Shown here: positions 5,625 to 21,768 of the stretch, piece by piece
How positions within the stretch are numbered: position 1 is the first letter of the stretch
Layout: each line of letters starts with the position of its first letter
DNA from: Candidatus Peregrinibacteria bacterium
GTDB taxonomy: Bacteria; Patescibacteriota; Gracilibacteria; UBA1369; UBA12463
Reading direction: 5' to 3'
Length of the DNA: 29,169 nucleotides
Assembly: GCA_016215735.1 (NCBI GenBank)
Contig: JACRIA010000069.1
Span: 1-29,169, forward strand
Translations under genes and position numbers: made by a program
The notes under the pieces: model-generated
What the model saw: only the letters and a program-made list of their open reading frames with translations
The model's database searches: none
Told to the model about the DNA's origin: nothing

Positions 5625-5640
5625 TGAGAATATTTTGTTA

Positions 5641-5701
5641 GGTGTTCGCCTGCGGCGATTTTTAATAGCGCCTGTGCCCGCCTCAGGCGGACGGCGTGTT
5701 A
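5641..5701. repeat. Bipartite hairpin element, family A, copy 1
   Basis: TCGCC-tgc-GGCGA, then an AT spacer, then GCGCC[tgt]GCCCGCC-tca-GGCGGAC-GGCGTGTTA; intergenic between nrdJ and the 851-aa gene. Confidence 0.85.
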
Positions 5702-5726
5702 GGACGCCCGTGGTGCTGTTGCGTTG

Positions 5727-8700
5727 CTATACAGTACACGCGGAGAATCCGCAATTCAAGCACAAGATACAGCCTTCGCCTTGACGTATTTCCGCAGAAC
5801 ATTCCGGGCATTTACATTCGCGCAACAATTGTGCTTTGCTCAGCGATCGATGCTGATGTGTTGTGAATTCTTCGGAAAAGGGGGAGCCCTCGCTTGCGAT
5901 CGGCGGAAGTATTATCTCTTCAATTTTGTTATTTTTTATCTTGGCCGTTCCTTTTTTCTGTTCCGGGATATCCGGCTGCGGAATTGTTTTTGATTTATTC
6001 ACTTTTCCGATATTAAGCACCTGCGATTCGCGGCTTTGGTCTCTGTAAATCGTGATTCCTTTGCAGTGCAGTTTATATGCGAGCCAATACGCTTGCTTGA
6101 TATCGTCGATCGACGCGGTTGACGGAAAATTTATTGTTTTTGATACAGAACTGTCAACATATTTTTGAAACGCGGCCTGCATTTTAACATGCCATTCAGG
6201 CAAGATATCCTGCGCGACGACAAAAACTTTTCTGATTTTTTCCGGAATCCATTTTATATTTTGTATTGATCCAATTTTCGCGATTTCAGCCATTAATTCA
6301 GGGGAATAAAGATTTTCTTTTTTCATTTCATCCTCAAAATATTTATTCGTGTAAACAAATTCAGTGCCGTCCATCACATTTTTGATATATGAGATTGCGA
6401 AGTTTGGTTCGAGTCCGCCAGAGGCTTCCGCGAGCATTCCAATCGTGCCGGTTGGAGCAATAGACGTGACGCATGCGTTTCTGATTTTAATGCCTTTTTT
6501 ATCGTATTCAGAGCCTTTCCATACTGGGAATACGCCGCGTACAGCCGCGAGTTTTATAGAATGTTTTATCGCGGCTTCATGAATGAATTTCATTGTTTTT
6601 TCGCCGAATTCAACTCCTTCATCTGAATTGTACGGAATATGCAATTGATAAAGAATATCCGCAAAACCCATTATGCCGAGGCCGATTTTGCGCGTTCTAT
6701 AGGTGTTTTCTTTAATTTGTTCAATTGGATAATGGTTTACGTCAATGACGTTATCCAAAAAATGTACGCATTTTTCCACAAGTTTATCGAGTTTTTCCCA
6801 ATCCAAATCCTTGCCGCTGCTTGCTACCACTTTATTAAGATTGATTGAGCCGAGATTACAGGATTCGTATGGAAGAAGCGGCTGTTCTCCACAATTATGG
6901 ACTACAAGTCCGTTTGCAATAAAACTGTGTGTGAGAGGTTCCGTAAGATCATATACAAGTTCTGTTCCAATGTGTTTTAGATTTTGAAATGTTGCGAAGA
7001 AATATTCTTTATACGGCTTTCTTTTCATGTTTTTTAGCGCAAGAGCAAGTTTTATTTTTTTGTTTGATTGAAGGAATCCGATTTCATTTTTGAATCTGGC
7101 AAGATTTTCTTTTGATATAACAAGTTCATGTTGCGCTTTTGTTCTGTAGAATTTGCTGCTGCCTTTGCCGTCTGGCAATTTTTTCCATCCTTCAAGTCTT
7201 CTGTTGCTGTATATTTTTGAAAATATGCCGAAATTCAAAAGCATTTGCTGAATTTTTTCCAAAACATCGAGGTTACTTTGTGCCAATCGTACGCTGAATC
7301 CTTTTTCTTTTGTGCCTGCGGTGTCGCTTCGCGACAGCTTATTTCTATAGACCTGTGTTCGCCTGCGGCGAACGGTCTGTTGAAAACTTCCGTCCGCAGA
7401 AAATAATCCCTGCAAAAATCCTTTCTGAAATGTTTCCGATGCAGTGAATATTTTTTCATCAATATCGTATTTACAAGGATTCAGTCCGTATGAATGCGCT
7501 AGTTCTCTCAAACGGCTTGAGCTGATTCGAACCTCATTCCTATTTGGGATTTTTACAATTCCTATTTTATTGTTTAACAATTCGGCTACCATTTTTTGAA
7601 ACATTGGCGCAAGACTGTATTTTTCCTCGCCAAAAAACGCTAATACTAATCTGGCTTTTTTGAATTCTTTGTTGTTCAGATATCCGTCTCCGACATACCA
7701 TCCAAGAATGCGGCCTGTTGCGAGATTTCCGTTTTTCCCGAACCCGCCTTTTCTATTTAATATATAAATTTTATCGTCTTGTTTTAGATCTTGCGCTTTA
7801 ATCCACCCATGTTTTGTCATTATTTTGTGATTCGCTGTGAGCTTTAAGCTGAATCCTTCTTTTGTTGTTAGCTTGTAGACGTCTTTTTCTCCAGTGATGA
7901 ATACTTTGCTGGCTTGAAGGCTGGATTTTTCGCTTATGCGCGAGTCAATGGTAAGCTTAATCGGGTTTTGTTTTAAAAATAATTCTTTTGCTGAAACCAG
8001 CCCTTTGTCCGTATAAATTAATGTATCGCCGGTTACGCATGGATTTGTGGCTTCTATATCCCCTAAATGCTTTACCGGACTTTTTCTATTTATTTCATCA
8101 ATAAAAATTAGACCCGGATCGCCGTTTTTCCACGCGTTCGCGAGAATGATATCAAAAACCATTTGACTGGGCAGTGTTTTTACGACTTTTTTATTGCGCG
8201 GATTCAAAAGCTCATATTCTTCATTTTTTTCAAGAGCTTCCATAAATCTGTCTGTTAATGCGACAGAAATATTAAAATTCGTGAGAGAATTCATGTCGGA
8301 TTTTGAATTGATGAAATCCAAAATATCCGGATGGTCAACGCGCAAAATTCCCATATTGGCTCCGCGCCGCTTGCCGCCTTGTTTGATAATTTCTGTCGCA
8401 GCGTCAAAAACTTTCATAAAACTCACTGGTCCGGAAGAAACGCCTGTTGTAGAGCGCACTACATCGTTTGACGGCCTTAATCTTGAAAAAGAAAAACCAG
8501 TTCCGCCGCCGCTTTTGTGGATAAGGGCGGCATGTTTCAGGCTTTCAAAAATTCCTTCCATTGAATCTTCAACTGGAAGAACAAAACATGCAGACAATTG
8601 TCCAAGTTGAGTTCCAGCATTCATAAGAGTGGGGGAATTCGGCATGAATTCCAGATTCGCGATCATATTGAAAAATTCTTCGCTTGTTTTTTCAACATTA

Positions 8701-9185
8701 GCGTTATAATTTTTGTCTGCCTGCGCGATTGCGTTCGCGATTCTATGCACCAAATCTTCAGGAGTTTCAATCAGATTTCCATTTTCATCTTTTAGCAAAT
8801 ATCTTTTTTCCAAAATCTTGAGCGCGTTGTTTGAAAAATTTAAATTCTTTTCAGCTTTGCCTTTACCAAGAATAAGTTCACGTTGAGCTCTTTCTTCGGC
8901 CCTTTTTTGTCTGTATAAAATGTACGCTTTTGCGGTTTTCGCGTGGCCTCCTTCAATCAATATTTTTTCAACAAGATCTTGAATCTGTTCAACAGTCGGA
9001 ATATCAGTTTCTTTTTTGAAAAAAACTTCTAGCACCGCAGTGATCTGGTTTGAAATTTGTTCTGCTTCTTTGCGATCTGTGCCACCAACAGCGGAAGCTG
9101 CTTTCCATATTGCTTCTGTAATTTTATTTTGATCAAAATCAACTATCCTTCCATCGCGTTTAACTATTTTTTTTATTGGAGACAT
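5727..9185 (-). CDS. nrdJ: Class II adenosylcobalamin-dependent ribonucleotide reductase with N-terminal ATP-cone, an intein and a C-terminal Zn-ribbon
   Basis: IVKRDGRIVDFD (ATP-cone), FMPNSPTLMNAG, QLSACFV, GGTGFSFS, NPC^CGEQPLLPYESCNLGSINL, IAPTGTI, VSKTINFP, KGITIYRD, CPEC...CLNCGFSAC. Confidence 0.96.
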   Translation of the reverse strand: MSPIKKIVKRDGRIVDFDQNKITEAIWKAASAVGGTDRKEAEQISNQITAVLEVFFKKETDIPTVEQIQDLVEKILIEGGHAKTAKAYILYRQKRAEERAQRELILGKGKAEKNLNFSNNALKILEKRYLLKDENGNLIETPEDLVHRIANAIAQADKNYNANVEKTSEEFFNMIANLEFMPNSPTLMNAGTQLGQLSACFVLPVEDSMEGIFESLKHAALIHKSGGGTGFSFSRLRPSNDVVRSTTGVSSGPVSFMKVFDAATEIIKQGGKRRGANMGILRVDHPDILDFINSKSDMNSLTNFNISVALTDRFMEALEKNEEYELLNPRNKKVVKTLPSQMVFDIILANAWKNGDPGLIFIDEINRKSPVKHLGDIEATNPCVTGDTLIYTDKGLVSAKELFLKQNPIKLTIDSRISEKSSLQASKVFITGEKDVYKLTTKEGFSLKLTANHKIMTKHGWIKAQDLKQDDKIYILNRKGGFGKNGNLATGRILGWYVGDGYLNNKEFKKARLVLAFFGEEKYSLAPMFQKMVAELLNNKIGIVKIPNRNEVRISSSRLRELAHSYGLNPCKYDIDEKIFTASETFQKGFLQGLFSADGSFQQTVRRRRTQVYRNKLSRSDTAGTKEKGFSVRLAQSNLDVLEKIQQMLLNFGIFSKIYSNRRLEGWKKLPDGKGSSKFYRTKAQHELVISKENLARFKNEIGFLQSNKKIKLALALKNMKRKPYKEYFFATFQNLKHIGTELVYDLTEPLTHSFIANGLVVHNCGEQPLLPYESCNLGSINLNKVVASSGKDLDWEKLDKLVEKCVHFLDNVIDVNHYPIEQIKENTYRTRKIGLGIMGFADILYQLHIPYNSDEGVEFGEKTMKFIHEAAIKHSIKLAAVRGVFPVWKGSEYDKKGIKIRNACVTSIAPTGTIGMLAEASGGLEPNFAISYIKNVMDGTEFVYTNKYFEDEMKKENLYSPELMAEIAKIGSIQNIKWIPEKIRKVFVVAQDILPEWHVKMQAAFQKYVDSSVSKTINFPSTASIDDIKQAYWLAYKLHCKGITIYRDQSRESQVLNIGKVNKSKTIPQPDIPEQKKGTAKIKNNKIEEIILPPIASEGSPFSEEFTTHQHRSLSKAQLLRECKCPECSAEIRQGEGCILCLNCGFSACTV
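6894..8039 (-). mobile_element. 382-aa intein with LAGLIDADG homing endonuclease, inserted just before the catalytic Cys of NrdJ (NP^CGEQ site)
   Basis: Starts CVTGDTLIYTDKG and ends FIANGLVVHN followed by C(+1). LAGLIDADG blocks ILGWYVGDG and FLQGLFSADG. Removing it restores EATNPCGEQPLL. Confidence 0.95.
7317..7379. repeat. Family A hairpin element, copy 2, inserted in frame in the intein endonuclease
   Basis: gtcgcttcgcgacagctt is identical to 11753-11770, followed by AGACC[tgt]GTTCGCC-tgc-GGCGAAC-GGTCT. Encodes about QTVRRRRTQVYRNKLSRSDTA. Exact boundaries are uncertain by a few nt. Confidence 0.85.
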
Positions 9186-9365
9186 GTGTTGGAGTTAAAT
9201 TTCTAATGTCTAATATATACTAATTTCTAATGCGGTTTGCGGCTGTGATGCACTAATTTCAAACACGGAAAGAACGGCCCAAGAAATTTATTTCTCCGAG
9301 CACTTCTAAATATATTCATATTTAGTTTTTGTTCAATAGATTTTTAGCAAAAACGCTTGCACCAA

Positions 9366-9413
9366 ATCATATATGTAGCGTCTTATACGATTGCGGCATA
9401 CTATATATTGTGG
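9366..9413. promoter_or_regulatory. Tandem putative NrdR boxes upstream of nrdJ
   Basis: atactatatattgtgg (9398-9413) matches the acaCwAtATaTwGtgt consensus. A weaker box atcatatatgtagcgt (9366-9381) lies 32 bp away, the spacing known for NrdR box pairs. Confidence 0.65.
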
Positions 9414-9465
9414 AAATGGCTTATTGCAGGGAGATAAGAGTTATTGTCCAAAAAGCCATGAAATT

Positions 9466-9975
9466 TCACATTTGTTTTAGCCTTTCAATGATGGCGGTTT
9501 TTACTGCGTTATCTACTGCGCCGGTTTTTCCTGATGTGTTTCCGAATTCAGATTCAGGTTCTTTTTCCAAAAGCTTTTCAATTTCTCGTGATTGTTCAAA
9601 CCCATCTTCTTTAGCAGGGTCTACATTTATTTCAGTTTCAGTATCCAAATCCATATATATTAAATCTGTTGTTCCAACGCGGCCGGCATTTATTTTCTTA
9701 TCTATTCCCAATTCCTGTTTTTCTTCTTCTGTTAATTTAATAACAAACCCTGCATCTCTGCCATCAGGCAATTTATAAAATTTATATTCCATATCCATGC
9801 AAGCAGTTGTTTTGTTGTTCAACCATACATTTACATATTGTTTGCCGGCTATTGCTACAGATTCCAATACTTCTTCTATTTCCAGGTCTGTTCAGGGAAT
9901 TTTATCTCCGACTTTAATAGACATTTCATTGATTTCTGTTTCATCAAAGGTAAAAGTTCCATCGTTGTTGTCCAT
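9466..9975 (-). pseudogene. Acidic hypothetical protein (169 codons) interrupted by one in-frame TGA at 9892-9894
   Basis: ATG at 9975 reads MDNNDGTFTFDETEINEMSIKVGDKIP*TDLEIEEVLESVAIAGKQ..., in frame with the listed 9466-9867 ORF. Confidence 0.65.
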
Positions 9976-10045
9976 GGTATATTTCGATTAATTAATAAAA
10001 GGATTTCATTTTTGCATAAATAAATTGTTGCGTCAATCCTTTGTA

Positions 10046-10513
10046 TTAACTGGCTTTTTTGAAATAATTTTCAATCGCGGATTTGAGGGCTTGGTCGCCT
10101 AAAACAGAACAGTGGATTTTTCTTTCTGGAAGACCGCCGAGACGTTTTAATATATCTTTTTGGCTTAATTTAAGCGCTTTATTAATTGGCATTCCGTTTT
10201 TTTCTGTGACCATTACAGATATTATTGAAGTTGATGCAATCGCGCTGGCGCAGCCGAAAGTCTGCCAGCCGCATTTTTTGATTCGTTTTGTTTTTGGATC
10301 AATGTAAATCCAAATTTTCATCATATCGCCGCACGCGGGACTGCCGACCATTCCTACGCCGTTATATTTGAAATTCGGCTTTCCGCCTAACACAAAATTT
10401 CTCGGATGAAAAAAATGGTCTTTAACTGTTTTTGAATAAAGCCATTTATCTCCGCGAGGAGAAATTATGTCAGGAGAGAATTTTTTGCACGAGAATTTTT
10501 GCGTGCGTTTCAT
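10046..10513 (-). CDS. iscU: IscU/NifU-N Fe-S cluster scaffold protein
   Basis: GSPACGDMMKIWI, TFGCASAIAS, RKIHCS (three conserved Cys); ATGA overlap with the iscS stop. Confidence 0.92.
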   Translation of the reverse strand: MKRTQKFSCKKFSPDIISPRGDKWLYSKTVKDHFFHPRNFVLGGKPNFKYNGVGMVGSPACGDMMKIWIYIDPKTKRIKKCGWQTFGCASAIASTSIISVMVTEKNGMPINKALKLSQKDILKRLGGLPERKIHCSVLGDQALKSAIENYFKKAS

Positions 10514-11721
10514 TGTTTGTATTTTAAGTTAACCGGCGAAATTGAACGCAGGTATTTTACTATTTTCGGAAGAGTTTCTAAAACATAATCAATTTCTTTT
10601 TTAGTCGTGTATTTGCTGAGCGTGAGCCGCAGACTGCCGTGGATTATTTCATGCGGAAGTCCGATCGCAGAAAGCACATGTGATGGTTCAAGATTTTTGG
10701 AGCTGCATGCGGATCCTGTGCCGCAGCAGATATTCATTTGGTCAAGATATAAAACAAGCGCTTCACCTTCGATATCGTATATTGAAATATGAACGTTGTT
10801 TGGGAGCCTTTGCGTTGGATGGCCGCTCCGAATTACTTTATCGATCCGTTTCATGATTCCATTTATCAATTTGTCGCGCAAATTACGAATTCGCGGCACA
10901 TCTGTTTTGATTGATTTTTGCGCTAGTTCAAGGGCTTTGCCGAATCCAACAATTGCCGCCACATTTTCAGTGCCTGGCCGCAAGCCGAATTCATGGTGGC
11001 CGCCGAAAATTATCGGTTCGATTTTTGTATTTTTTCTAATATAAAGGCTGCCGACTCCTTTTGGGCCGTGTATTTTTCCAGCGTTAAGCGTCATCAAATC
11101 AACACCCAATTTATCAACATTAAGAGTTAAACTGCCTGCTGCCTGACATGCGTCCGTATGAAGATAAGGGAGCCCGGCCGAATTTTTATACTTCTTGATT
11201 ATTTTGCTGATTTCTTCAATTGGCTCTATTGTTCCGATTTCATTGTTTGCATACATAATACTTACGAGAATCGTTTTTGGCGTGAGCGCTTTTTTTAATT
11301 CATCAAGCCGTACCACTCCGTATTTATCCACATTCAGACATGTGACGCTGAAGCCTTCTTTTTCAAGCGCCTCGCAAGTTTCAAGAATAGAAGGATGCTC
11401 TATTTTTGTTGTAATAATGTGATTCCCTTTTGATTTATTCAGCCGAGCTGCGCCGGCCAGCGCCAAGTTATTAGCTTCGGTACCGCTTCCAGTGAAAATA
11501 ATTTTGCCAGCATTGCAGCCAAGATAGTCGGCTGTAATTTTTCTTGCGTGATCGATTGCTTCGCGGCCTTCATAGCCAAGCGAATATAAGCCGCTTGGAT
11601 TACCGTATTTATCCGTCAGATATGGTTCCATCGCATGCAGCACAGTTCTATCGAGCTGTGTGGTTGCAGCGTTATCAAGATAAATCAATGTTTTACAAGG
11701 TTTTATATTGAGATTTTGCAT
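10510..11721 (-). CDS. iscS: PLP-dependent cysteine desulfurase (IscS/NifS group I)
   Basis: IYLDNAATT, FTGSGTEANN, HTDACQ, GKIHGPKG (PLP Lys), GSACSS (catalytic Cys). Confidence 0.96.
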   Translation of the reverse strand: MQNLNIKPCKTLIYLDNAATTQLDRTVLHAMEPYLTDKYGNPSGLYSLGYEGREAIDHARKITADYLGCNAGKIIFTGSGTEANNLALAGAARLNKSKGNHIITTKIEHPSILETCEALEKEGFSVTCLNVDKYGVVRLDELKKALTPKTILVSIMYANNEIGTIEPIEEISKIIKKYKNSAGLPYLHTDACQAAGSLTLNVDKLGVDLMTLNAGKIHGPKGVGSLYIRKNTKIEPIIFGGHHEFGLRPGTENVAAIVGFGKALELAQKSIKTDVPRIRNLRDKLINGIMKRIDKVIRSGHPTQRLPNNVHISIYDIEGEALVLYLDQMNICCGTGSACSSKNLEPSHVLSAIGLPHEIIHGSLRLTLSKYTTKKEIDYVLETLPKIVKYLRSISPVNLKYKQ

Positions 11722-11724
11722 AGT

Positions 11725-11827
11725 TTTATAGCGCCTGTGTCCGCCTGTTTGCGTCGCTTCGCGACAGCTTGTTTATAGCGCCTGTGTCCGCCTGAGGCGG
11801 ACGGCGTGTGCGGCGAACGGCGTGTTA
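11725..11827. repeat. Nested family A composite (copy 3 inserted in the loop of another copy)
   Basis: 23-bp direct repeat tttatagcgcctgtgtccgcctg at 11725-11747 and 11772-11794. Deleting 11748-11810 (63 nt) rejoins a complete hairpin. Confidence 0.85.
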
Positions 11828-11877
11828 TAGGGAGTGTTACGCGCTTTGATAGGCGAGCGTAAGTATTTTAGCATAAC

Positions 11878-11905
11878 TTGACTTAGGGTTATAACAAAGT
11901 ATAAT
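11878..11905 (+). promoter_or_regulatory. Sigma70-type promoter for the 11944 ORF
   Basis: TTGACT (11878-83), 16 bp, TATAAT (11900-05). Confidence 0.65.
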
Positions 11906-11943
11906 GGTTTTGCATAATAAATACTTAATTAAACCATAGAATT

Positions 11944-12384
11944 GTGTTAAATCAAGGGTTAGAGCAGACTAGTGGCGGGAATGGACAAAAAATAACAAAT
12001 CCCGAAGAATTTATTTGCGAGATAACCAAAGTTTGCGACAGCACAAGGGGAGCTGAAATACTTAAAAGCGATCTTAAACAGATTTGGGTTGCCGCATACT
12101 GTAATGGAAATGATGTAAGGGTGGCATTGAAGGAGGCTTTGGAAAGTGTTCTTGATGAAAAACGGCGGGAGAAAATCAAAGAAACATTGTCAAGCATCAT
12201 GGATCCCGAAACGGATGCGCTTTTGGGGTATTATTATATAAAAAATCCCGAAAAAACAGTTGATGACGTAGCGCAAAATTTTAGAGTTGCCGCGATGGCC
12301 GCGCTGGAGCTTTTGCCGCGCATCGAGCTCGCGGAAATCAACGTTGATGATTGTTCAGATTATTCCGGAGAAGTTCAAGGCTAA
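11944..12384 (+). CDS. Hypothetical helical protein
   Basis: 146-aa ORF with a GTG start behind a near-consensus promoter; no motif recognised. Confidence 0.6.
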   Translation: MLNQGLEQTSGGNGQKITNPEEFICEITKVCDSTRGAEILKSDLKQIWVAAYCNGNDVRVALKEALESVLDEKRREKIKETLSSIMDPETDALLGYYYIKNPEKTVDDVAQNFRVAAMAALELLPRIELAEINVDDCSDYSGEVQG

Positions 12385-12907
12385 GGCATGTTCCCATATC
12401 TTTTATTTTGCCTTTTTTCGCAAGCAGGCGAGCTTTAGCGAGCGTCAAGAGCTGCACCCGAATTTGTTCGTGCGGATCTAGTTTTTGTTTTGAAGTTTTG
12501 ATTGCGCCGCGTCCTATAAAAATATGAGCTTTGTTTGTTAGAACACCGGGCGATGCATAAAATTCGCCGAGCTTCTTGAGAGACACAGTTTTATAGCCGG
12601 TTTCTTCAAGAAGTTCGCGTGCCGCCGCCTGCGTCATTGTTTCATTTTTCCGCGCAAACCCAGCTGGAAACTCCAAATCTATCCGGCCAATCGGATGGCG
12701 ATACTGTTTAACCATTATTAATTTTCTGTCGGCGGTCCTGCCTCGCGGAGCGTGGGTGAAAGCCGCGATTATGCAGTAATCGGATTTTTCAATCACATAA
12801 TAATCTTTTGCGATGCGGCCATCTGTCATTTTATAGTCATCGCGCCTGACGCACAGAATGTTATTTTTCAAGACATATTTAGAGCGAATAATTTTCCAAT
12901 TTTTCAT
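12338..12907 (-). CDS. Nudix hydrolase, ADP-ribose pyrophosphatase-like
   Basis: VKQYRHP...EFPAGFARKNETMTQAAARELLEETGY Nudix box; FYASPG; DPHEQI. Confidence 0.92.
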   Translation of the reverse strand: MKNWKIIRSKYVLKNNILCVRRDDYKMTDGRIAKDYYVIEKSDYCIIAAFTHAPRGRTADRKLIMVKQYRHPIGRIDLEFPAGFARKNETMTQAAARELLEETGYKTVSLKKLGEFYASPGVLTNKAHIFIGRGAIKTSKQKLDPHEQIRVQLLTLAKARLLAKKGKIKDMGTCLSLELLRNNLNNHQR

Positions 12908-12914
12908 GATTTTA

Positions 12915-12923
12915 TGATATACT
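12915..12923 (+). promoter_or_regulatory. Extended -10 promoter (TGnTATACT) for the tRNA
   Basis: tgatatact at 12915-12923, 12 nt before the tRNA 5' end. Confidence 0.5.
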
Positions 12924-12935
12924 AATCGCTGTCAT

Positions 12936-13010
12936 GGCGCACTCGTCTAGTGGTTAGGACATCAGGTTTTCAACCTGAGAACTGGGGTCCGATTCCCCAT
13001 GGCGCTGCCA
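12936..13010 (+). tRNA. tRNA-Glu (anticodon TTC) with encoded CCA; atypical acceptor stem and T-loop
   Basis: D arm GTCT-AGTGGTT-AGGAC, anticodon arm TCAGG-ttTTCaa-CCTGA, T arm TGGGG-TCCGATT-CCCCA, 3' end TGGCGCT-G-CCA. Confidence 0.88.
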
Positions 13011-13072
13011 GAATTGAAGCATAGAATATAGAGGGCGGCTGTTTATGAGCTTGCCGCGGCAGACGAACTTTT

Positions 13073-13333: not shown

Positions 13334-13337
13334 AGTC

Positions 13338-13544: not shown

Positions 13545-13701
13545 TTTAATTTTAATTATAATATAATATTACATTATAATATTAACATATCACATAAAAA
13601 TTTTCAAGAGATATTTAAATATCAAACATTTGCGGCTGTGCCGCTTCAAAGCTAAGCTTTTTACCTGCAAGTTAAATTCGTATAGCAGAAACAATTTCCT
13701 G

Positions 13702-14007: not shown

Positions 14008-14008
14008 T

Positions 14009-14071
14009 GTGGTGTCCGCCTTCGGCGGACGGCGTGGTGTCCCCCGCCATGGCGGGGCGGGCGGCGTGTTA
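14009..14071. repeat. Family A tandem variant filling the whole rlpA-ftsL-like intergenic gap
   Basis: GTCCGCC-ttc-GGCGGAC-GGCGT, then a second unit containing the CCCGCCATGGCGGG palindrome, ending GGCGTGTTA. Confidence 0.8.
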
Positions 14072-15043
14072 TTGAATGATTAAATATTCAATGGGTATTA
14101 TACCGTTAGAAAGGGGCGCGATAGAAGAAAACGCAGCCTGCGATAAATCAAGCGTGAAATTTTTAGCGTAGGGGCCGCGGTCGTTGATAACAACTTCAAC
14201 TGTTTTTGAATTGCGTAAATTTGTGACGCGCACTCGCGTGCCAAACGGAAGTTTCCTGTGCGCTGCTGTGAAATTTTTGTTTGAAAATGATTCTCCGGAA
14301 GATGTATGGCCGCCTTCAAGAGTTTTATGATAATAACTCGCGATTCCAAAATTTATTCCTTCGCGGGAACGAATTAATCTGTATAAAATTTCCATCAAAT
14401 AACCTTTTGTAACGATTTCACTTGGTTCCATTTCGTCAGATTTCCCAAATTTAATTATCCGTTTTTCTCTTGCCAGTTTCGCGTACGGCGCAAACCATAC
14501 GTTAGCTGGTACATCAGCAAAAATATTTTCAGCAGGCGCCGCAGTTGATATTTCCGGCGCCGCGGATTCTTCAGCCGGCGCGCTAAAAACTATTGAATTA
14601 TTTATTAATTTTTCTGTTTCAAGAACCATTTTGATGGCTTCTGCAAGCAAAATACGCTTATGCGGCAGAAACTTTTTGTTTTCATATCCGTTGATTATTT
14701 TTAATTCAACAGCTGTCTTTATATATGGCGCGAGAATACTTTCCGCAGGCACGTCCAAAAACGGTTTTAATGTTAATTTCATGTTTGATTCAGGCGCGTA
14801 GCCGAGAATTATTTTTAAAATATAATAAACAGCTTCGGCGCGGGACATTTCTTTTCCCGTATCAAACAAATCTCCATTTTTATCAAGCAAATCTGCTTTT
14901 TTTAAATATTGGATTGCTGTGAAATAATCGCTTCCTTTCGGCACGTCCTTAAAAAATTCTCCCTCTGCGTTTACCGCTGGCGCGAAAAAAATCTGGGACG
15001 CCAAAAATATGAACCCGATAAAAAAAGCTATTTTATGTTTCAT
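14069..15043 (-). CDS. rlpA: SLH-domain protein fused to an RlpA-like (DPBB) lytic transglycosylase domain
   Basis: Signal peptide; SLH motifs FKDVPKGSDY, FLDVP...IINGY, FADVPANVWFAPY; C-terminal GIASYY...TAAHRKLPFGTRVRVTN...INDRGPY...LDLSQAAF. Confidence 0.9.
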   Translation of the reverse strand: MKHKIAFFIGFIFLASQIFFAPAVNAEGEFFKDVPKGSDYFTAIQYLKKADLLDKNGDLFDTGKEMSRAEAVYYILKIILGYAPESNMKLTLKPFLDVPAESILAPYIKTAVELKIINGYENKKFLPHKRILLAEAIKMVLETEKLINNSIVFSAPAEESAAPEISTAAPAENIFADVPANVWFAPYAKLAREKRIIKFGKSDEMEPSEIVTKGYLMEILYRLIRSREGINFGIASYYHKTLEGGHTSSGESFSNKNFTAAHRKLPFGTRVRVTNLRNSKTVEVVINDRGPYAKNFTLDLSQAAFSSIAPLSNGIIPIEYLIIQ

Positions 15044-15516
15044 GCTTTTTCTTCGCTTTTTAGCTTGAGCGTGACTTGTCTATGGTCGTTTTCGCCGACG
15101 CTTTCGGTTTGAATATCTTGAAATTTTTCCTGCACAAAATGCATGTGCACAATTCTGCGCAGATAAGCCGGCATTGGCGGAAGAATCTGGATTTTCTTTG
15201 TTTTCCGCAGAAGTTCAACTTTTCGCTCTGCGAGATTGAGAATATTGTCCTCGTGCTCTTTTTTGTAATTGTCCACATCGAGCACGATATTTATTCCCAT
15301 TTCACCGAGACGTTTGAATGCCAGTGCTTTAAAAATATGCTGGAGACTGTGTAAAGTTTCGCCATGATATCCGATAAGCATGGCTGCGTTCTTTAGCCCA
15401 GCGATGTTCGCTTTGTACGTTGTGTTGTCGGATGTGATCTCGATTTTGACTGACGGCTCCGTAAAATATTTGATCAGTTCCTCGAGGATTTCCTGAAGCA
15501 ATTTTTCTGTTTCCAT
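15040..15516 (-). CDS. jag: Jag/KhpB (EloR)-type KH plus R3H RNA-binding protein
   Basis: LIGYHGETLHSLQ (KH), LDVDNYK, LPPMPAYLRRIVH...TESVGENDHRQV (R3H); canonical position after yidC. Confidence 0.92.
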   Translation of the reverse strand: METEKLLQEILEELIKYFTEPSVKIEITSDNTTYKANIAGLKNAAMLIGYHGETLHSLQHIFKALAFKRLGEMGINIVLDVDNYKKEHEDNILNLAERKVELLRKTKKIQILPPMPAYLRRIVHMHFVQEKFQDIQTESVGENDHRQVTLKLKSEEKA

Positions 15517-15559
15517 ATTTTTTTGGCGTAGATCTGCGGAACGACGTGATCCGCGCCTG

Positions 15560-16852
15560 TTAATGAGTAATGACTTTTACAGTTGGTTCACTTTTCCCTT
15601 TTCCGCCGCGATTAACAAGATATTGCTGGCCGACGCTGAATAACGTAGAAGCGCCCCAATAGATGCCAACACCTGCCGGCACCGAAGCAGTGAATATAGC
15701 AATCATTACAGGCATAAAATAAAGCATCATTTTGTTTACACTTTTAGATTCTGTTTTATTCTGTTCACCCGGGGTTTTTGTAGCTGCGCCTCCTGTGCTG
15801 AATGACAATTTCATCTGCAGAAATTGAAGTCCGCCGATAATAACCGGCAGAACGTAGCTGTTTTGTTTAGTGAGATCAAGAATCCCCAGAAAATTCACAT
15901 TTATATTATCCAGCGTAAAGCCCTTAAGAAAGCCATAAATCATATACGCGTTATCAGCGTTTAATCCGTTTCGTACAACATAAAAAATCGCGATCAAGAA
16001 CGGAAACTGAATCAAAATCGGCAGACAGCTTCCAAACGGATTTACTTTATTTTCCTTGAAAATTCTTAAAGTTTCCTGGCCGATCATTTGCTGATTTCCT
16101 TTGTATTTTTCTTTGAGCCTGTCGATTTCCGGCTGGACTTCCTGCATTCTTTTTTGCGACTGCATTGAGCGGTGCGACGGCCAGAAAAGTATCATTCGTA
16201 CGATTATCGTAAGAATAATAATCGCGAAGCCGAAATCGCGAAAAGGCAGAATATTTGTGAAGAAAATCAGCGTGTTATAAATCGGGAAATAAAAGAAATT
16301 GTTCCAGAGCTTGCGCCAAAAGCTTTGTTCTACAACTTGAAATTCATTTGATTCAAAAGTTTTATCCGCGGCTTTTTTTTCAACGACTTTTTTCCCTTTA
16401 GCAGTTGGACTTGGTTCGTCGCTAGTTGCGCTGGCGGTTTTTATTGTGAGGCTGATTTTGTATTTTCCAAGTTCGCCGAATAAAGCGTGATTCCATTTAT
16501 CATACGCGATTTGATAGTCTTTGCCCGTAGGAAGTACAAAATCTTTTGCTTCAGTACAATCTGTTTTTGGGTTTGATTCTATTTTTTGCCACGCGTTATC
16601 AGCATATTTAAAAACATCGAGCGGATTATGCGGACATGCGTTTTTAATTGTGATATCTGCCTGCGTGTTATTTTTGAGTTCGACGATTACGGTTTTATCG
16701 AGGCCGAATTCGCTGTCAGTCTGCATCCCAATTTCGTTTTTATCGAGCAGGCCGGGTTCGCTGCTTTTTCCTTTAAAAGCGCCCAAAATCAAATTCAGCG
16801 CAAGAAAAATTGCCACAAAAATAACTACATTTCTCAGGATGTTTTTACCCAT
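15560..16852 (-). CDS. yidC: YidC/Oxa1 membrane protein insertase
   Basis: FGFAIIILTIIVRMILFWP, SQKRMQEVQPEI, NPFGSCLPILIQFP, GVGIYW. Confidence 0.96.
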   Translation of the reverse strand: MGKNILRNVVIFVAIFLALNLILGAFKGKSSEPGLLDKNEIGMQTDSEFGLDKTVIVELKNNTQADITIKNACPHNPLDVFKYADNAWQKIESNPKTDCTEAKDFVLPTGKDYQIAYDKWNHALFGELGKYKISLTIKTASATSDEPSPTAKGKKVVEKKAADKTFESNEFQVVEQSFWRKLWNNFFYFPIYNTLIFFTNILPFRDFGFAIIILTIIVRMILFWPSHRSMQSQKRMQEVQPEIDRLKEKYKGNQQMIGQETLRIFKENKVNPFGSCLPILIQFPFLIAIFYVVRNGLNADNAYMIYGFLKGFTLDNINVNFLGILDLTKQNSYVLPVIIGGLQFLQMKLSFSTGGAATKTPGEQNKTESKSVNKMMLYFMPVMIAIFTASVPAGVGIYWGASTLFSVGQQYLVNRGGKGKSEPTVKVITH

Positions 16853-17214
16853 TTGAATATATTTTTGAAGATATAAATTATTTCGTTTTCCATTTCAGCA
16901 AAGCCTTTTTCGAGAATTTTGCTGTTTGGTCCGAGCGCTATGTCATATGTTGCGCCGGGTCTTGCCGCGTTTGCTATGGCCGCGCCTTGCCCTGCGCCGA
17001 GATTTTTCCTTATTGCTTCGTAGATTTGTCTTCGGATCCGCGTTCTTTTGATTGGCGTGAGTTTGAGCTTCTTACTTATTATAATACAGAAACGATTGAT
17101 ACCTGCTTTATTCGCCTTAGAAATCACCAAAAAATTGCTGGACTTATGCCGAATGCCTTTACGCAGCAGAAATTCAACCTGGCCTTTACTGAGCCTGTTT
17201 TTTTTAGCCAGCAT
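16834..17214 (-). CDS. rnpA: Ribonuclease P protein component
   Basis: MLAKKNRLSK...RFCIIISKK...KRTRIRRQIYEAIR (RNR-like motif); located between rpmH and yidC. Confidence 0.88.
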   Translation of the reverse strand: MLAKKNRLSKGQVEFLLRKGIRHKSSNFLVISKANKAGINRFCIIISKKLKLTPIKRTRIRRQIYEAIRKNLGAGQGAAIANAARPGATYDIALGPNSKILEKGFAEMENEIIYIFKNIFKWVKTS

Positions 17215-17215
17215 A

Positions 17216-17347
17216 TCAAACAGGAGTTAGTTTTTTCCTGCCCTTCTCTCTTCTGCGGGATAAAACTTTCCGACCGCCTTTTGTTTTCATTCTTTTTAGA
17301 AAACCGTGGGTGCGGGCTCTTTTCCGCTTCTTTGATTTCGAAAGCAT
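17216..17347 (-). CDS. rpmH: 50S ribosomal protein L34 (43 aa; absent from the ORF track)
   Basis: Manual translation [43 protein letters not shown], with the HGFxxRM signature. Confidence 0.96.
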
Positions 17348-17370
17348 ATATTAATTAGTTATTATTTGAC

Positions 17371-17435
17371 GTGGTTTCCGCCTGCGGCGGATTTATTTTA
17401 TAACGCCTGTGTCCGCCTGAGGCGGACGGCGTGGT
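17371..17435. repeat. Family A bipartite hairpin element upstream of rpmH
   Basis: TCCGCC-tgc-GGCGGA, AT spacer, ACGCC[tgt]GTCCGCC-tga-GGCGGAC-GGCGT. Confidence 0.85.
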
Positions 17436-17453
17436 CGGGAAAAGCTTATCGTA

Positions 17454-17494
17454 TAAATAAAAAGTTTGCAAATGTATATATATTATATTATACT
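17454..17494 (+). promoter_or_regulatory. Sigma70-type promoter, copy 1 of a duplicated promoter
   Basis: A-tract UP-like sequence, TTGCAA (17466-71), 17 bp, TATACT (17489-94). Confidence 0.65.
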
Positions 17495-17561
17495 CAAACT
17501 CGGCTTTTTTGTTATTAAAAACCATGTTATTCTAAGTATGCTTTATATAACCTAATAAAAT

Positions 17562-18578
17562 ATGAAAAAAATAATTTTGGCAGTTTTACTATTTTTCTTG
17601 TCAATCCAGCCTGTTTTCGCGGATCTTACTATACCGACAACCACTAAAGTATATTTTGAAAAGGACGGGAAACAATACAATAAAAAAATCGAATATACCG
17701 TAAAATGTTATGGCTTCAGTTTCGTACCATGGAAGGAGGAATTTTTTCAGCCCGGAGAATATACGCCAACAAAGATTTATTCTTATTCAGCTACATGTCC
17801 GAATTACGGTTGTGAAATCAACGAAAACTATTATTTAAATTACGTCAAAATCGATTACTGCGATTTGGAAGGAAAAAGCGATGATGGCGCTTTTAAAATA
17901 AAAAACTTTGCTTCCGAGCCTATCACGGATTGTTCTAAAAATGACGAAGAAAGATCTTGCCAGATACGCTTTGATATTCCAACTGATAAAACCAGCCTTA
18001 TTTTTCTCGATATGCATCCGAATCACGAAAATTACGATGCTGTAGAATATGTAAAATCTAAAAAAATTATCTCCGGATACCCGGACAATACATTCAGGCC
18101 CTATTTAGGCGTAAACAGAGCGGAATTTACAAAAATGCTTGTTGAATCGGTATTTGACAAGAATGTTATAGATAATTGCATACAACAAAACGTTCAATCT
18201 GACTGGGGATATGCTTATTTTAAGGACGTAGACCGCAATGCTTGGTATGCTAAATACGTTTGCGTAGCGAAAAATAAAAATATTATTAGCGGATATCCTG
18301 ACGGGACATTTAAACCAGAAAAGCCGATAAATCTAGCCGAGGCGTCAAAAATTTTAGTTGGCGCTTTCGGCTATCCTTATGATTCTTCCCATCAATACGA
18401 CTTGTGGTATTCGCCTTTTATAGGAGTTTTGTCAGATAAAAAGGCAGTTCCAGAGAGCGTTGAAACCGAAAGCCAAAATCTTAGGAGAGGAGAATTTGCA
18501 GAAATTATATATAGATTAAAAGAAAATATTACGAACAAACCGCATTATAATTGTTGTCCGACCGGAATATTAGAATAG
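17562..18578 (+). CDS. Secreted SLH-domain protein with a Cys-rich N-terminal domain
   Basis: Signal peptide ending VFA; SLH motifs IISGYPDNTFRP...NRAEF, FKDVDRNAWY, ISGYPDGTFKPE...AEA. Confidence 0.88.
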   Translation: MKKIILAVLLFFLSIQPVFADLTIPTTTKVYFEKDGKQYNKKIEYTVKCYGFSFVPWKEEFFQPGEYTPTKIYSYSATCPNYGCEINENYYLNYVKIDYCDLEGKSDDGAFKIKNFASEPITDCSKNDEERSCQIRFDIPTDKTSLIFLDMHPNHENYDAVEYVKSKKIISGYPDNTFRPYLGVNRAEFTKMLVESVFDKNVIDNCIQQNVQSDWGYAYFKDVDRNAWYAKYVCVAKNKNIISGYPDGTFKPEKPINLAEASKILVGAFGYPYDSSHQYDLWYSPFIGVLSDKKAVPESVETESQNLRRGEFAEIIYRLKENITNKPHYNCCPTGILE

Positions 18579-18587
18579 AGGTATTTT

Positions 18588-18944
18588 ATGGTTTATCAAA
18601 CACGATTTTTAATTTCTTTATTGATTACTTTATTGCTTGAGGTGCCGATTGTTTTTATTTTTGTTAAATATATTTTCCGAGAAAAAATAAGAACAAAAAA
18701 TATTCTTTTAACCGGATTTTTGGCTTCTATTTTGACCTTGCCGTATGTATGGTTTGTTATATCGCCGTATGTAGATGCGAGATATTATATTATTTACAGT
18801 GAGATTTTTGCGATTATTACAGAAGCTTTGTTATATAATCAATTTATAAATATCAAATTTCATAAATCAATCGCTATTTCTATTATTGCTAATGCGGCGT
18901 CTTATTTTGCGGGAGCATACCTAGTTAAATTTGCTTTTTCATAG
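18588..18944 (+). CDS. Small polytopic membrane protein (about 4 TM)
   Basis: Hydrophobic 118-aa ORF 9 nt after the SLH gene. Confidence 0.8.
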   Translation: MVYQTRFLISLLITLLLEVPIVFIFVKYIFREKIRTKNILLTGFLASILTLPYVWFVISPYVDARYYIIYSEIFAIITEALLYNQFINIKFHKSIAISIIANAASYFAGAYLVKFAFS

Positions 18945-18952
18945 ATTATCCT

Positions 18953-18993
18953 TAAATAAAAAGTTTGCAAACGTATCGCATATATTGTATATT
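18953..18993 (+). promoter_or_regulatory. Sigma70-type promoter, copy 2 of the duplicated promoter
   Basis: taaataaaaagtttgcaaa is identical to 17454-17472. TTGCAA (18965-70), 17 bp, TATATT (18988-93). Confidence 0.6.
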
Positions 18994-19020
18994 ATGCGCG
19001 AATTATCTGACCTTTTTATT

Positions 19021-20961
19021 ATGGCAATAAATGTAAACTATGAATTTTTGTTTGTTGGAAGGGACGAAAACAGTTTCCTGGAAAATTATGTGTATGACGC
19101 GACAGACGATTACGGCGATAAGGGAGGCAAACTTTGGGTAACGCTTGAAATTCAAAACAATCCTGCTGAAGCAGAAACAATCGCGGAGACTGTTTTTGAA
19201 ACAATGCGCAGGCATTTTTTCGCTGACATGAATGCTGATCCGTATGCGAGATTCGAAAACAGCCTTAAAGAAGCGAATAAGAAACTTGAGGCGTTTAAAG
19301 CTGAAAAGTCATCCCATTATATTGGCAATTTGAGCATTCTTGCGGCTGCTGTTGTTGGAACGAATCTGCTTTTGTCGCAATGCGGCGAAGCAGAGGCTTA
19401 TTTAATCAGAAAAAGATATGTGAGCGTAATTACAGAAGGTTTGAGCGATGATAATTATGAATTTTTCACAAATATAGCGACCGGAGTGCTTGAGCTTAAT
19501 GATTTTGTTGTTTTGTCTTCGAGCAGGCTGCTCCGATATATTTCAAAAACAGAACTTGCGAAATGTATTACGCAAGGCAATGTTGTTAAATCTCTTGAAG
19601 AATTAAATTCAATGGTTGCTTCGGAAATTCTGGGAAAGATAGCGATTACCGGAATCAATGCGGCTGAACAGGAAGAAATTATGGAGGAAGAAGTTGTGCG
19701 GCCGTCGTTTATCGCGAGCAAACTTGGATTTCTAAAAAAGGTTCCTTATATTGATAAATTGCCGCTGGATAAGCTTAAAAATATAGATTGGGAGAAATTT
19801 CGGTCAGGCGCGAAAAATGTTATTGAAAAAGCTAGTACTTTGCAGGAGAAATTTATGAAGCCGGAATCTTTGAAAGACAAAGTTTTAATCGGGTTTATCG
19901 CTGTCGCTGTTATTTTACTTTTGTTTGTCGGCGTTACGAAATACCGCCAGAGCAGAAATGAAGAATTAACAGCGCTTGATACAAAATTGAATCAGGCGCG
20001 CGATGAATTAAGCGAAGCTCTAACAAAAGGCGAGTACGATAAAACCGCAGCAGGCAAAATTTTGGCGCACGCGGAACAGACTGCGAAAGAAGTTCTTAAT
20101 ACAACTATGCGTGCGAAAGCGACCGAAGTTCTCACGAGGATTCAGGAAGTGCGCGACACCCTTGATAATACAAAAAGAGTAACGCCGGAAGTTTATCTTG
20201 ATCTGACCAAAACAAAATCAGAAGTAAACGCGCTTGGCATTTTGCATTTAAAAGATAGATCTTATGTGTTTGATAATAATTCGCTTTTTGAATTAATTTT
20301 GAATAATGTCGGCGAGCCAATGGCTATAGCTGACAACGAAACCGTTATTGCAGGCGCTGTTTTTGATGAACGCGAAAGCCTTGTTTTCCTAACCAAATCA
20401 GGCAAAGTGGTTGAGTTTAAAGACGGGAATTTCCGCTACATGTCAACGACTGACGGTGTGTTTCACAAAGGCATTTCAATCAAAACATGGAGCAATAAAA
20501 TTTATATTTTGAATCCAGAAGAAGATCAGATATGGAAATATGCGTACATGAATACAAAAGACATGTTCTCGAACGCGGAAGCGTACAGACAGGACGGTTC
20601 CATGAAAAATACTGTTGATTTCAGCCTTGATGGGAATATTTACACAGCGAACAGCGACGGCAGTCTTGTGCGGTATTACGCTGGCAGGATTCAGGAAACA
20701 CCGATGCTGAAGGCGGCATTTAGGCCTTTAAATTCAGCTTCGAAAGTTTACACTGACGCTGACATGATGCAGGTTTTTGTTTTAGATGGAACTGAAAATA
20801 GATTATATCTTTATCAGAAAGAGCAAAAAGGCGCGGCTTTAAGTTACGGCAGGCAATATCAGTTTGACGGCGTCGGTGAAGTGCGCAGTTTGTATTTTGA
20901 TAAAACAGCGAATCAAATTTATATAGTTGATTCAGAAAAGATATATAAAGTTACGCTTTAG
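19021..20961 (+). CDS. Membrane-anchored protein: degenerate PP2C-like N-domain, TM helix, coiled coil, C-terminal beta-propeller
   Basis: LSILAAAVVGTNLLLSQCGEAEAYLIR and GVLELNDFVVLSSSRL follow PP2C strand patterns without the DG motifs. TM VLIGFIAVAVILLLFVGV. Repeated IY(I/V)L/D blades. Start 19021 is preferred because 18931 overlaps the upstream gene and promoter. Confidence 0.7.
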   Translation: MAINVNYEFLFVGRDENSFLENYVYDATDDYGDKGGKLWVTLEIQNNPAEAETIAETVFETMRRHFFADMNADPYARFENSLKEANKKLEAFKAEKSSHYIGNLSILAAAVVGTNLLLSQCGEAEAYLIRKRYVSVITEGLSDDNYEFFTNIATGVLELNDFVVLSSSRLLRYISKTELAKCITQGNVVKSLEELNSMVASEILGKIAITGINAAEQEEIMEEEVVRPSFIASKLGFLKKVPYIDKLPLDKLKNIDWEKFRSGAKNVIEKASTLQEKFMKPESLKDKVLIGFIAVAVILLLFVGVTKYRQSRNEELTALDTKLNQARDELSEALTKGEYDKTAAGKILAHAEQTAKEVLNTTMRAKATEVLTRIQEVRDTLDNTKRVTPEVYLDLTKTKSEVNALGILHLKDRSYVFDNNSLFELILNNVGEPMAIADNETVIAGAVFDERESLVFLTKSGKVVEFKDGNFRYMSTTDGVFHKGISIKTWSNKIYILNPEEDQIWKYAYMNTKDMFSNAEAYRQDGSMKNTVDFSLDGNIYTANSDGSLVRYYAGRIQETPMLKAAFRPLNSASKVYTDADMMQVFVLDGTENRLYLYQKEQKGAALSYGRQYQFDGVGEVRSLYFDKTANQIYIVDSEKIYKVTL

Positions 20962-21194
20962 AGGGGACGGTTCTCTATTTACAGATCGAAAATTTTATTT
21001 CTGGATAAGATTTAAGGCAAAGGCACCGGATATACAAAATATTGATTTTGTGTTGAAACTACTGATTTTTATTAAAATTTCTTAACAAAAAATTAAAAAT
21101 CTCGGGGACGGTTCTCGGGTTTTTGGCATAAAAAAGCCAAAGTGCCTTAGAGAACCGTCCCGCTTTTAAGCTCGACAGGAGAGAACCGTCCCCT
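20962..21194. repeat. 233-bp inverted-repeat element (family C, GGGGACGGTTCTC) between convergent genes
   Basis: Perfect 15-bp IR aggggacggttctct (20962-76) / agagaaccgtcccct (21180-94); inner pair at 21104-16 / 21150-61. Confidence 0.85.
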
Positions 21195-21678
21195 AAATAG
21201 TGTGGCTTTTCGCGATTTTTTTGCTTTTGAATGTTGTTTGCGGGCCGCGCTCGACTTTGACGTTCGAGTCGCGCAATATATCAAAATGAGGTAGAACTTC
21301 AGGGTAACCTTCTTGATAAACAACGCGGGCGATTCCTGATTCCGCGATCAAACTTGAGCAAATTCTGCAAGGGTGTTTTGTGCAGTAGAGAGTCGCGTTT
21401 TTGAGCGAAACTCCTTTTTTGACAGCTTGCGCGATAATCCATTGTTCTGCGCACATTCCATAGCAGATTTCACGTTTTTCGCCTGATTTGATGTGTCTTC
21501 GGTTTCTGATGCAGCCGATTTTATTGCAGGGATATTGGCAATGCCAGTCGTTTGTATGTTTGAAAAGTACGCGGTTGTTTTTTACAACAACAGCCGCGAT
21601 GTTCGCGCGCAGACAAAGAGCGCCAGGCTCCATTTTATCAATCAGTTCCAAAAATTTTATGTCTTTTTTTGTGATCAT
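21193..21678 (-). CDS. dCMP-deaminase/ComEB-like zinc deaminase with a CAE motif instead of HAE
   Basis: CLRANIAAVVVKNN, GCIR...SGEKREICYGMCAEQWII, ATLYCTKHPCRICSSLIAESGIARVVY. Confidence 0.85.
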   Translation of the reverse strand: MITKKDIKFLELIDKMEPGALCLRANIAAVVVKNNRVLFKHTNDWHCQYPCNKIGCIRNRRHIKSGEKREICYGMCAEQWIIAQAVKKGVSLKNATLYCTKHPCRICSSLIAESGIARVVYQEGYPEVLPHFDILRDSNVKVERGPQTTFKSKKIAKSHTI

Positions 21679-21706
21679 TTTTTATGGGGCGGCTTGAGCG
21701 CATTTA

Positions 21707-21768
21707 TTTATATGTGCCTGTGTCCGTTTTAACTTCGTTGCTGCTTGCGCAGAGCGGCGGACGGTTTG
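21707..21768. repeat. Family A variant with an expanded loop, overlapping the 3' end of the R15P isomerase gene
   Basis: tttatatgtgcctgtgtccg...gcggcggacggt arms enclosing the AACTTCGTT and CTGC-ttgc-GCAG mini-palindromes. Confidence 0.65.

Follow-up and report, generated by a model that had tools for sequence, protein, structure and literature searches.

The window analysed here is the whole 29,169-nt stretch of contig JACRIA010000069.1 from a Candidatus Peregrinibacteria bacterium (assembly GCA_016215735.1). It is contig C50 of a 950,091-bp genome in 90 contigs, with 40% GC and an estimated completeness of 94.7%; we refer to this genome as G000 and to four sister species of the same genus as G001, G002, G003 and G004. 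Six loci in the window carry related GC-rich hairpins of a repeat that we call family A, and we are highly confident that family A is a mobile, non-autonomous element. An initial annotation of the window had described the six hairpin loci, all in one orientation, with three of them ending in GGCGTGTTA and with minus-strand GCGAAGC (GCTTCGC on the + strand) at 7326-32 and 11756-62. All six loci read as described on the + strand, the endings and the short sites are exact, and a covariance model, R1, built from 22 clean, un-nested copies of family A, matches five of the six.

Read on the + strand of the window, a family A unit is approximately 63 nt long and non-coding. It opens with a short 5' tail beginning T(G/T), followed by GG(T/A)G and a small GC hairpin of 5-8 bp whose loop usually reads TTC or TGC. 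Next, 10-15 nt of T-rich spacer lead to a large hairpin, composed of a 5-bp outer stem, a TGT bulge, a 7-bp inner stem and a triloop, and the unit closes with (C/G)TG. A short form of ~47 nt consists of a distinctive T-rich leader and the large hairpin, without the small one. Family A is too small to be autonomous, and it lacks the GTAG foot of classical repetitive extragenic palindromic (REP) sequences, as first noted in the initial annotation, and likewise a CGTC foot.

The six loci, all on the + strand, sit in varied surroundings. Locus 1 (5639-5701; R1 E-value 8e-14, fold z-score -2.6) lies between two minus-strand genes and comprises a small hairpin at 5646-5658, a T-rich spacer and a bulged large hairpin of the GCCCGCC/GGCGGAC sub-lineage with one C.A mismatch; its small hairpin and T-run pass a scan for terminator-like structures on the + strand. 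Locus 2 (7317-7379; R1 7318-7382, E 3.6e-21) is a canonical 63-nt unit within an intein. The host open reading frame (ORF), NrdJ at 5727..9185(-), is an 1152-codon class II ribonucleotide reductase interrupted by a LAGLIDADG intein, and the unit supplies 21 in-frame codons, antisense to the gene, just after the intein's second LAGLIDADG motif. Locus 3 (11725-11827) is composite: an outer spacer and large hairpin host a full 63-nt unit at the 5' edge of the triloop (inner unit R1 11748-11811, E 8.9e-19), whose limits are 11746-11808 or, given a TG ambiguity, 11748-11810. The orthologous spacer in G002 contains no element.

Locus 4 (14008-14071) is atypical, with no R1 match at E <= 0.01 and a weak fold (z -1.7). 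It has two GC hairpins, each followed by GGCGTG, without a T-rich spacer, and its kinship to the family is through the hairpin and GGCGTG blocks alone; it fills the exact gap from the stop codon of one gene to the start codon of the next. Locus 5 (17371-17436; R1 E 1.5e-17, fold z -5.4 / -6.4) is a canonical unit approximately 24 nt upstream of a small minus-strand ORF (17215-17347, start codon CAT at 17345-17347 on the + strand). This ORF of fewer than 60 codons, upstream of rnpA and yidC, is probably rpmH, and the Ribonuclease_P and 60KD_IMP genes lie downstream of the locus. At locus 6 (21684-21771; R1 E 4e-6, fold z -0.9) the large hairpin is opened by an unrelated insert of ~28 nt. In addition, a short spacer at 15517..15559 (+) contains what appear to be decayed pieces of family A, and its counterpart in G002 is a cluster of three to four intact or nested units (R1 at G002:C50:5105-5237).

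The structure of the unit is strongly supported by covariation. Across the 22 aligned units, 96.9% of cells in the three-helix structure are paired. Selection of the units with a hairpin parser inflates this percentage but leaves the numbers of double changes unaffected. Changes on both sides occur in 10 of the 15 base pairs, the observed measures were reached by 0-2 of 500 shuffles, and the pairing measures collapse once partners are slid by one to three columns. The outer stem occurs in versions such as GCGCC/GGCGT, AGACC/GGTCT, GGGCC/GGCCT and AGAGC/GCTCT, and the inner stem in at least six. The compensatory stem changes read in the initial annotation from the window are thereby upheld, and the same is true of its minus-strand GNA loops. 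Genome-wide, 40 of 57 large-hairpin triloops are GNA on the opposite strand (GCA 28, GAA 10, GGA 2), against none on the + strand; TTC or TGC accounts for 46 of 63 small-hairpin loops. Its proposal that mismatches become wobbles solely on the minus strand does not generalise: inner-stem mismatches on the + strand comprise five G.T and ten A.C pairs, seven of these A.C pairs coming from one sub-lineage, and 46 of 75 copies have a G.T outermost pair in the large hairpin when read on the + strand.

Family A is abundant in this genome and patchy outside it. R1 was searched against G000, the four sister species, 11 genomes from two other genera of the family and 151 genomes of the order. The 122 matches in G000 show that the window samples a family of around 120 copies, not just a few, and the sister species carry 78 (G002), 32 (G001), 18 (G004) and 15 (G003), an 8-fold range within the genus. 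The 11 genomes from the two other genera gave none, barring one match at chance level. Across the order, matches occur in 12 of the 151 genomes, namely those of the genus, G059, G039, G143, G036 and G075, and two singletons. G059 has at least 20, some of them tandem or nested, and the G036, G039, G059 and G075 sequences share the architecture with different stems. Simple pattern counts in G000 gave 78 occurrences for the large hairpin's left half and 160 for the inner hairpin, evenly across contig strands. In total, family A covers ~8 kb of G000, which amounts to 0.84% of the genome and roughly a tenth of its non-coding DNA.

An artefact can be excluded because family A recurs in independent assemblies of other species. 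The element does, nonetheless, break assemblies: public unitigs stop at its copies, and public contigs covering the window gave repeat-induced joints and breaks at copies and no empty alleles within the source sample. In a search for RNA evidence, the sole run matching the window sequence was a groundwater DNA metagenome. An Rfam scan of the window at E <= 1 returned a tRNA and one chance-level match, nothing relevant to family A. In a limited open-access literature search we found no description of repeats of this type from the candidate phyla radiation (CPR).

One body of evidence for mobility comes from sites that are filled in one species and empty in another. The intein of G004, which is 73-79% identical at the protein level and lies in an orthologous ORF of 1135 codons, lacks exactly the 63 nt of locus 2, with a junction ambiguous by one T and no duplication. 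The ribonucleotide reductase orthologues of G002 and G001 have 773-783 codons and match the C-terminal extein part of the query alone, so that these genes appear, on sequence comparison, to be without the intein. Locus 4 is absent from G002, where the two orthologous genes overlap as TAATG. Furthermore, three syntenic stretches of 16-20 kb align between G001 and G004 at 88-94% identity, and within them five insertions of 60-125 nt containing a unit are present in G001 and cleanly absent from G004; other units are common to both. Occupancy thus differs between close relatives and the empty sites are precise. Together with copy number, covariation and polarity, this sustains the reading of the initial annotation that these are non-autonomous, REP-like mobile elements.

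Nested copies tell the same story from within one genome. G000 contains ~30 nested junctions, 20 of which join a unit end to the right half of a CGGCG-type hairpin and 10 to the right half of a GTCGC small hairpin, and excising 61-65 nt or 46-48 nt from nested loci restores the host hairpin. These junctions place about a quarter of the units in targets that make up well below 1% of the non-coding DNA. The preferred self-target, chosen far above chance, is the 5' stem-loop junction of existing copies (GCC^TGC, CGC^TTC), which generates nested and tandem arrays; in G002 three identical 63-nt units stand in tandem within one loop. Other insertions lie in very short AT-rich spacers beside start codons and, in one case, in an intein region that is dispensable. 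Across the seven interspecies empty/filled pairs and the nested copies, junction ambiguity is at most 1-2 nt, and longer target duplications, sought at nine junctions, were not found. In eight of nine resolved events T(T/G) stands directly 3' of the insertion point, with contexts that include TTAA.. (three), TTGAA, TTATT, GTTAT, TGC and TTC.

Several other sequences are associated with family A hairpins. The ~28-nt mini-insert of locus 6, which contains a CTGC/GCAG hairpin, occurs in three family A hairpin loops (21712-21768 in the window, G000:C20:13480-13530 and G000:C27:27899-27950) and looks like a further small loop-targeting element. An extra palindrome, CCCCGAG-TA-CTCGGGG, extends the inner stem to 12 bp at C13:6158, C40, C42, C32, C64:4740, C27:27960 and C52:17544, and may be a nested insertion or mark a sub-family. 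Finally, at G000:C5:4257-4355, C64:6819-6860, C32, C52 and C72 the small hairpin and spacer are followed by a different 3' hairpin (GCGCGG...CCGCGC, ~27 nt), which suggests modular shuffling between repeat families.

What moves family A is less certain than that it moves. Overall, we consider it probable that family A is a non-autonomous mobile element of ~63 nt that is moved as single-stranded DNA (ssDNA), for which an enzyme of the Y1 (single-tyrosine) transposase group is the best candidate. Movement would follow the manner of REP and IS200/IS605-derived elements, with a hairpin-binding HUH/Y1 nuclease, supplied in trans, cutting beside the bound hairpin; such cutting would explain the self-targeting of loop junctions. 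The mRNA-sense strand, which is the minus strand in the window, carries the large hairpin first and the GNA triloops, and it is plausible from these loops and from the logic of the junctions that this is the active single strand.

The initial annotation had proposed an unrecognised mobiliser. This part of its reading has to be modified, since G000 does carry a REP-type Y1 transposase gene, a candidate mobiliser whose link to family A is circumstantial. Two intact Y1_Tnp genes are present in the genome. One, G000:C21:502-1155(+), matches Y1_Tnp at E 2.8e-16 and scores 80 bits against NF047646 (REP_Tyr_transpos), exactly the cut-off, compared with 25.7 bits against the IS200 profile, where the cut-off is 55. 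Its best solved relative is E. coli TnpA-REP (4ER8), with which the HvH and YielNPV (Y-x-x-x-NPV) motifs align, and a search for relatives of this REP-associated tyrosine transposase (RAYT)-type protein returned distant proteobacterial, Verrucomicrobia and Terriglobia proteins only. Besides the gene itself and a partial second copy in G000, homologues were found in G001, in G004 and in G002, which has two, one of them containing stop codons; the 11 genomes from the rest of the family yielded none. Element and RAYT-type gene occur together in four of the five genomes of the genus. The RAYT-type genes are each flanked by their own 15-16-nt terminal inverted repeats (TIRs), starting GGGGACGG or GGTGTCGG, and this REP-type, TIR-flanked tyrosine transposase of the genus would be the best candidate enzyme. 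Of the first 15 bases in the C21 gene's 16-nt inverted repeat, 13 agree with the left end most often seen in family A. Additionally, E. coli TnpA-REP binds the REP hairpin and cuts ssDNA at a nearby C^T (PMC3333891), which fits the GCC^T and CGC^T junctions of family A.

The second gene, G000:C68:301-759(-), encodes an IS200-type TnpA of 152 codons (104.9 bits to NF033573). Its insertion sequence (281-810) is single-copy, has matching hairpins on both sides and lies beside an apparent tRNA-like region. Among 41 genomes this element occurs in G000 alone and in no sister species; given this confinement, and flanking hairpins unrelated to family A, we rejected it as the mobiliser. TnpB, reverse transcriptase and rve integrase were not detected in G000, which has one Xer-like recombinase.

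A further repeat family in G000 bears on the RAYT-type genes, since species-specific variants of its arms flank them. It consists of 13-nt arms, GGGGACGGTTCTC, arranged as palindromic hairpins (~20 loci) or as single arms, with sites at 20963-21194 in the window and on contigs C2, C8, C13, C24, C79, C81 and others. Single arms are often followed by TATTGACA or TATTTACA, resembling a -35 box.

A number of observations weigh against part or all of this explanation. The TIR repeat at the RAYT-type genes is a different sequence with a dispersed family of its own, and it differs from one paralogue to another within the genus, whereas family A is alike in all species. No convincing R1 match adjoins any of the six RAYT-type genes examined. 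No Y1 match was found in G003 (85% complete, 15 copies), nor any Y1_Tnp match in G059, G039, G143, G036 and G075, which are 94-100% complete and carry related elements; outside the genus, none of the seven genomes with R1 matches has a Y1_Tnp match. One of the nine resolved junctions lies within an A-run and misfits ^T(T/G). The ssDNA folding energies of the two strands are nearly equal, and the wobble-pair evidence on the active strand points both ways. Accordingly, we discarded strand assignment both from folding energy, in which the strands do not differ, and from wobble pairs, for which inner stems and outermost pair favour opposite strands. Given that the link to the enzyme is circumstantial, that units do not flank its genes and that Y1-free genomes carry related elements, we put forward movement of family A by the C21 Y1 enzyme tentatively, as somewhat short of an even chance on the sequence comparisons available.

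The strongest alternative is that family A is mobile and owes its movement to an agent outside the Y1/RAYT group, such as a nuclease or recombinase that has escaped recognition, a function encoded by a phage or plasmid, or host replication or repair copying hairpin cassettes into stem-loop junctions. The five genomes from other families of the order with related units and no Y1_Tnp match speak for it, as does the flanking of RAYT-type genes by a repeat other than family A. Nevertheless, copies are most numerous where a RAYT-type gene is present (122, 78, 32 and 18, against 15 to ~20 or fewer without), 13 of 15 bases at the left end agree with the TIR, and HUH chemistry is in keeping with the absence of duplication, with the hairpin ends and with the C^T-type junctions. 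Other transposase families were not found in G000, and metagenome bins, which all the genomes in this co-occurrence comparison are, often miss mobile genes. We regard this alternative as possible, though doubtful. A fuller version of it, in which an enzyme or host process free of Y1 inserts 63-nt cassettes at the 5' stem-loop junctions of hairpins and into AT-rich DNA upstream of starts, with orientation set by transcription through the exposed non-template strand, and the copies persist across several families of this order of ultra-small bacteria, perhaps because they are tolerated or serve as punctuation where Shine-Dalgarno sites are lacking, seems to us unlikely.

The orientation of family A raises a different question, that of host function. 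Using the longest flanking open frames at 90 loci, we found that copies between co-directional genes are antisense in 49 cases and sense in seven (binomial p = 7e-9); a further 14 of the 90 lie between divergent and 10 between convergent genes. Orientation switches nine times among 42 neighbouring locus pairs, and contigs C6, C27, C61 and C64 have loci on both strands, each antisense to the local genes. Genome-wide, orientation is highly non-random and follows local transcription. Replichore as the sole cause of this polarity was rejected, as orientation flips with gene direction inside at least four contigs; with only two replichore boundaries per genome, orientation follows transcription and not replication alone.

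In the mRNA sense the parts run as follows: a stop codon (or the 3' end of a tRNA), the large hairpin, an A-rich spacer, the small hairpin and a start codon. The five recent G001 insertions are already in this arrangement. ORF calls are crude and the automatic measure of distance is noisy, and we therefore claim only a short gap between element and start, from a few to ~25 nt, in clear cases. The end of the large hairpin lies 0-8 nt from the 3' end of a tRNA on the opposite strand at G000:C5:4141-4194, G000:C84:2471-2511, G004:C16, G004:C1:9396 and G002:C21. On the element strand, the small hairpin and T-run at 5646, 7322, 11753 and 17377, which are all those tested, pass a terminator consensus and are predicted terminators. 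The simplest reading of the bias would be that sense copies act as intrinsic terminators inside operons, stopping their transcripts, and have been lost, leaving the antisense ones. Alternatively, the bias may arise from targeting of the exposed non-template strand.

The leader regions of G000 are unusual in their own right. In 675 long ORFs, Shine-Dalgarno motifs are essentially absent, with GGAG in 1.2% of regions from -18 to -4 compared with 3% within genes, and upstream regions are A-rich and G-poor, with an excess of A at -11 and of T at -7 and -15. This base pattern may reflect promoters directly before start codons and leaderless mRNAs. We considered the spacer of family A as a promoter of the downstream gene and found no support for it: its sense core is of the TATAAA type, with no hexamer that keeps both A2 and T6, and a promoter consensus scan of the window spacers listed none on the minus strand.

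In a second alternative, the units are kept mainly as intergenic punctuation for the host, whether as antisense terminators, as barriers stabilising the ends of mRNAs or as sites of processing between cistrons, and mobility is secondary. Strict polarity relative to transcription, placement after a stop codon or the 3' end of a tRNA and ahead of the following start codon, the terminator-like small hairpin and T-run, and an architecture maintained by compensatory change across families of the order are all consistent with such a role, and without Shine-Dalgarno sites the leaders of G000 are unusual anyway. Yet orthologous genes in sister species manage without the element, copy number varies 8-fold within the genus, and the downstream genes are unrelated housekeeping genes. 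Moreover, a quarter of the units lie inside other units and one inside an intein, where no punctuation role is available, and on the sense strand neither hairpin is followed by a U-tract and the spacer lacks the promoter hexamer discussed above. We consider this alternative improbable. Least probable by far is that the units encode a family of small structured RNAs: their hairpins are stable and covary, but there is no Rfam match, both strands fold equally, no promoter stands out, and nested and tandem copies, the in-frame coding copy and the presence/absence polymorphism indicate insertion of DNA.

If family A is a mobile element, as we conclude, its presence has several implications. Ultra-small genomes of the CPR type are usually described as streamlined and repeat-poor, a view that contrasts with the ~0.8% of a 0.95-Mb genome occupied by one recently active 63-nt element. 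Exact empty sites, a preference for its own loops, strict orientation and an in-frame insertion in an intein make family A clean material for studying transposition of hairpin elements. Because related elements occur in genomes that have the gene and in others that lack it, family A could serve to test whether such repeats are indeed moved by REP-type Y1 enzymes. On a practical level, family A units cause false start sites and spurious ORF extensions in annotation. The window also contains a perfect 27-nt tandem duplication (ATTTATTTGGGACCAGGTCCC...) between two genes at 27863-27932, with a partial third copy.

Among the known systems nearest to family A are REP sequences, their bacterial interspersed mosaic elements (BIMEs) and REPINs, which accompany RAYT genes (PMC3333891, PMC3733652). 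Shared features are high-copy GC-rich hairpins located in short spacers and kept by compensatory change, clustered or tandem arrays, occasional copies inside genes and a single- or low-copy REP-type Y1 HUH gene in the genome. The differences are nonetheless substantial. Instead of a conserved GTAG or CGTC tag, family A shows GG(T/A)G ahead of the small hairpin and, in the large one, a TGT bulge (22 units, 75 large hairpins). A classical REP is a single imperfect palindrome of 20-40 bp, whereas the moving unit here is 63 nt with two different hairpins and a spacer, and REPINs are inverted REP doublets, whereas family A units share one orientation per locus and are nested or tandem. In a REPtron the RAYT gene is flanked by its repeat, and family A units do not flank Y1 genes. 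Unlike REP-RAYT systems, moreover, family A points strictly against transcription and has relatives in Y1-free genomes.

Di Nocera et al. 2013 (PMC3733652) described TIRtrons or TIRYTs, in which a tyrosine transposase stands between terminal inverted repeats bearing a motif similar to GGGGWSAS. The Y1 genes of the genus resemble them, with 15-16-nt TIRs close to GGGGWSAS and moderately abundant dispersed hairpins and half-sites. This description, however, fits the second repeat family of G000; family A shares just its first ~15 bases with one TIR variant. With IS200/IS605 elements and palindrome-associated transposable elements (PATEs), family A has in common subterminal hairpins at both ends, no target duplication and strand-specific behaviour (rules for IS608 as summarised in PMC3333891). 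As in IS200/IS605 elements, the insertion point in the mRNA sense lies on the 3' side of a short motif (in most cases ..AA^ or ..CA^) similar to the 3' end of family A. On the other hand, the IS200-type copy on C68 has unrelated hairpins and is missing from the sister species that carry family A.

Rickettsia palindromic elements (RPEs; cited in PMC3733652 and PMC10969869) are short palindromes of a reduced genome that lie in frame inside protein-coding genes without destroying them. By description, the family A copy in frame in a coding gene of a reduced genome is alike, with the difference that one such copy was seen and that it lies in a dispensable homing-endonuclease domain; no link between RPEs and loop self-targeting is known. 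Overall, falling outside what defines a classical REP, a REPIN or a REPtron, family A is, on well-supported grounds, a new family of a known, REP-like kind.

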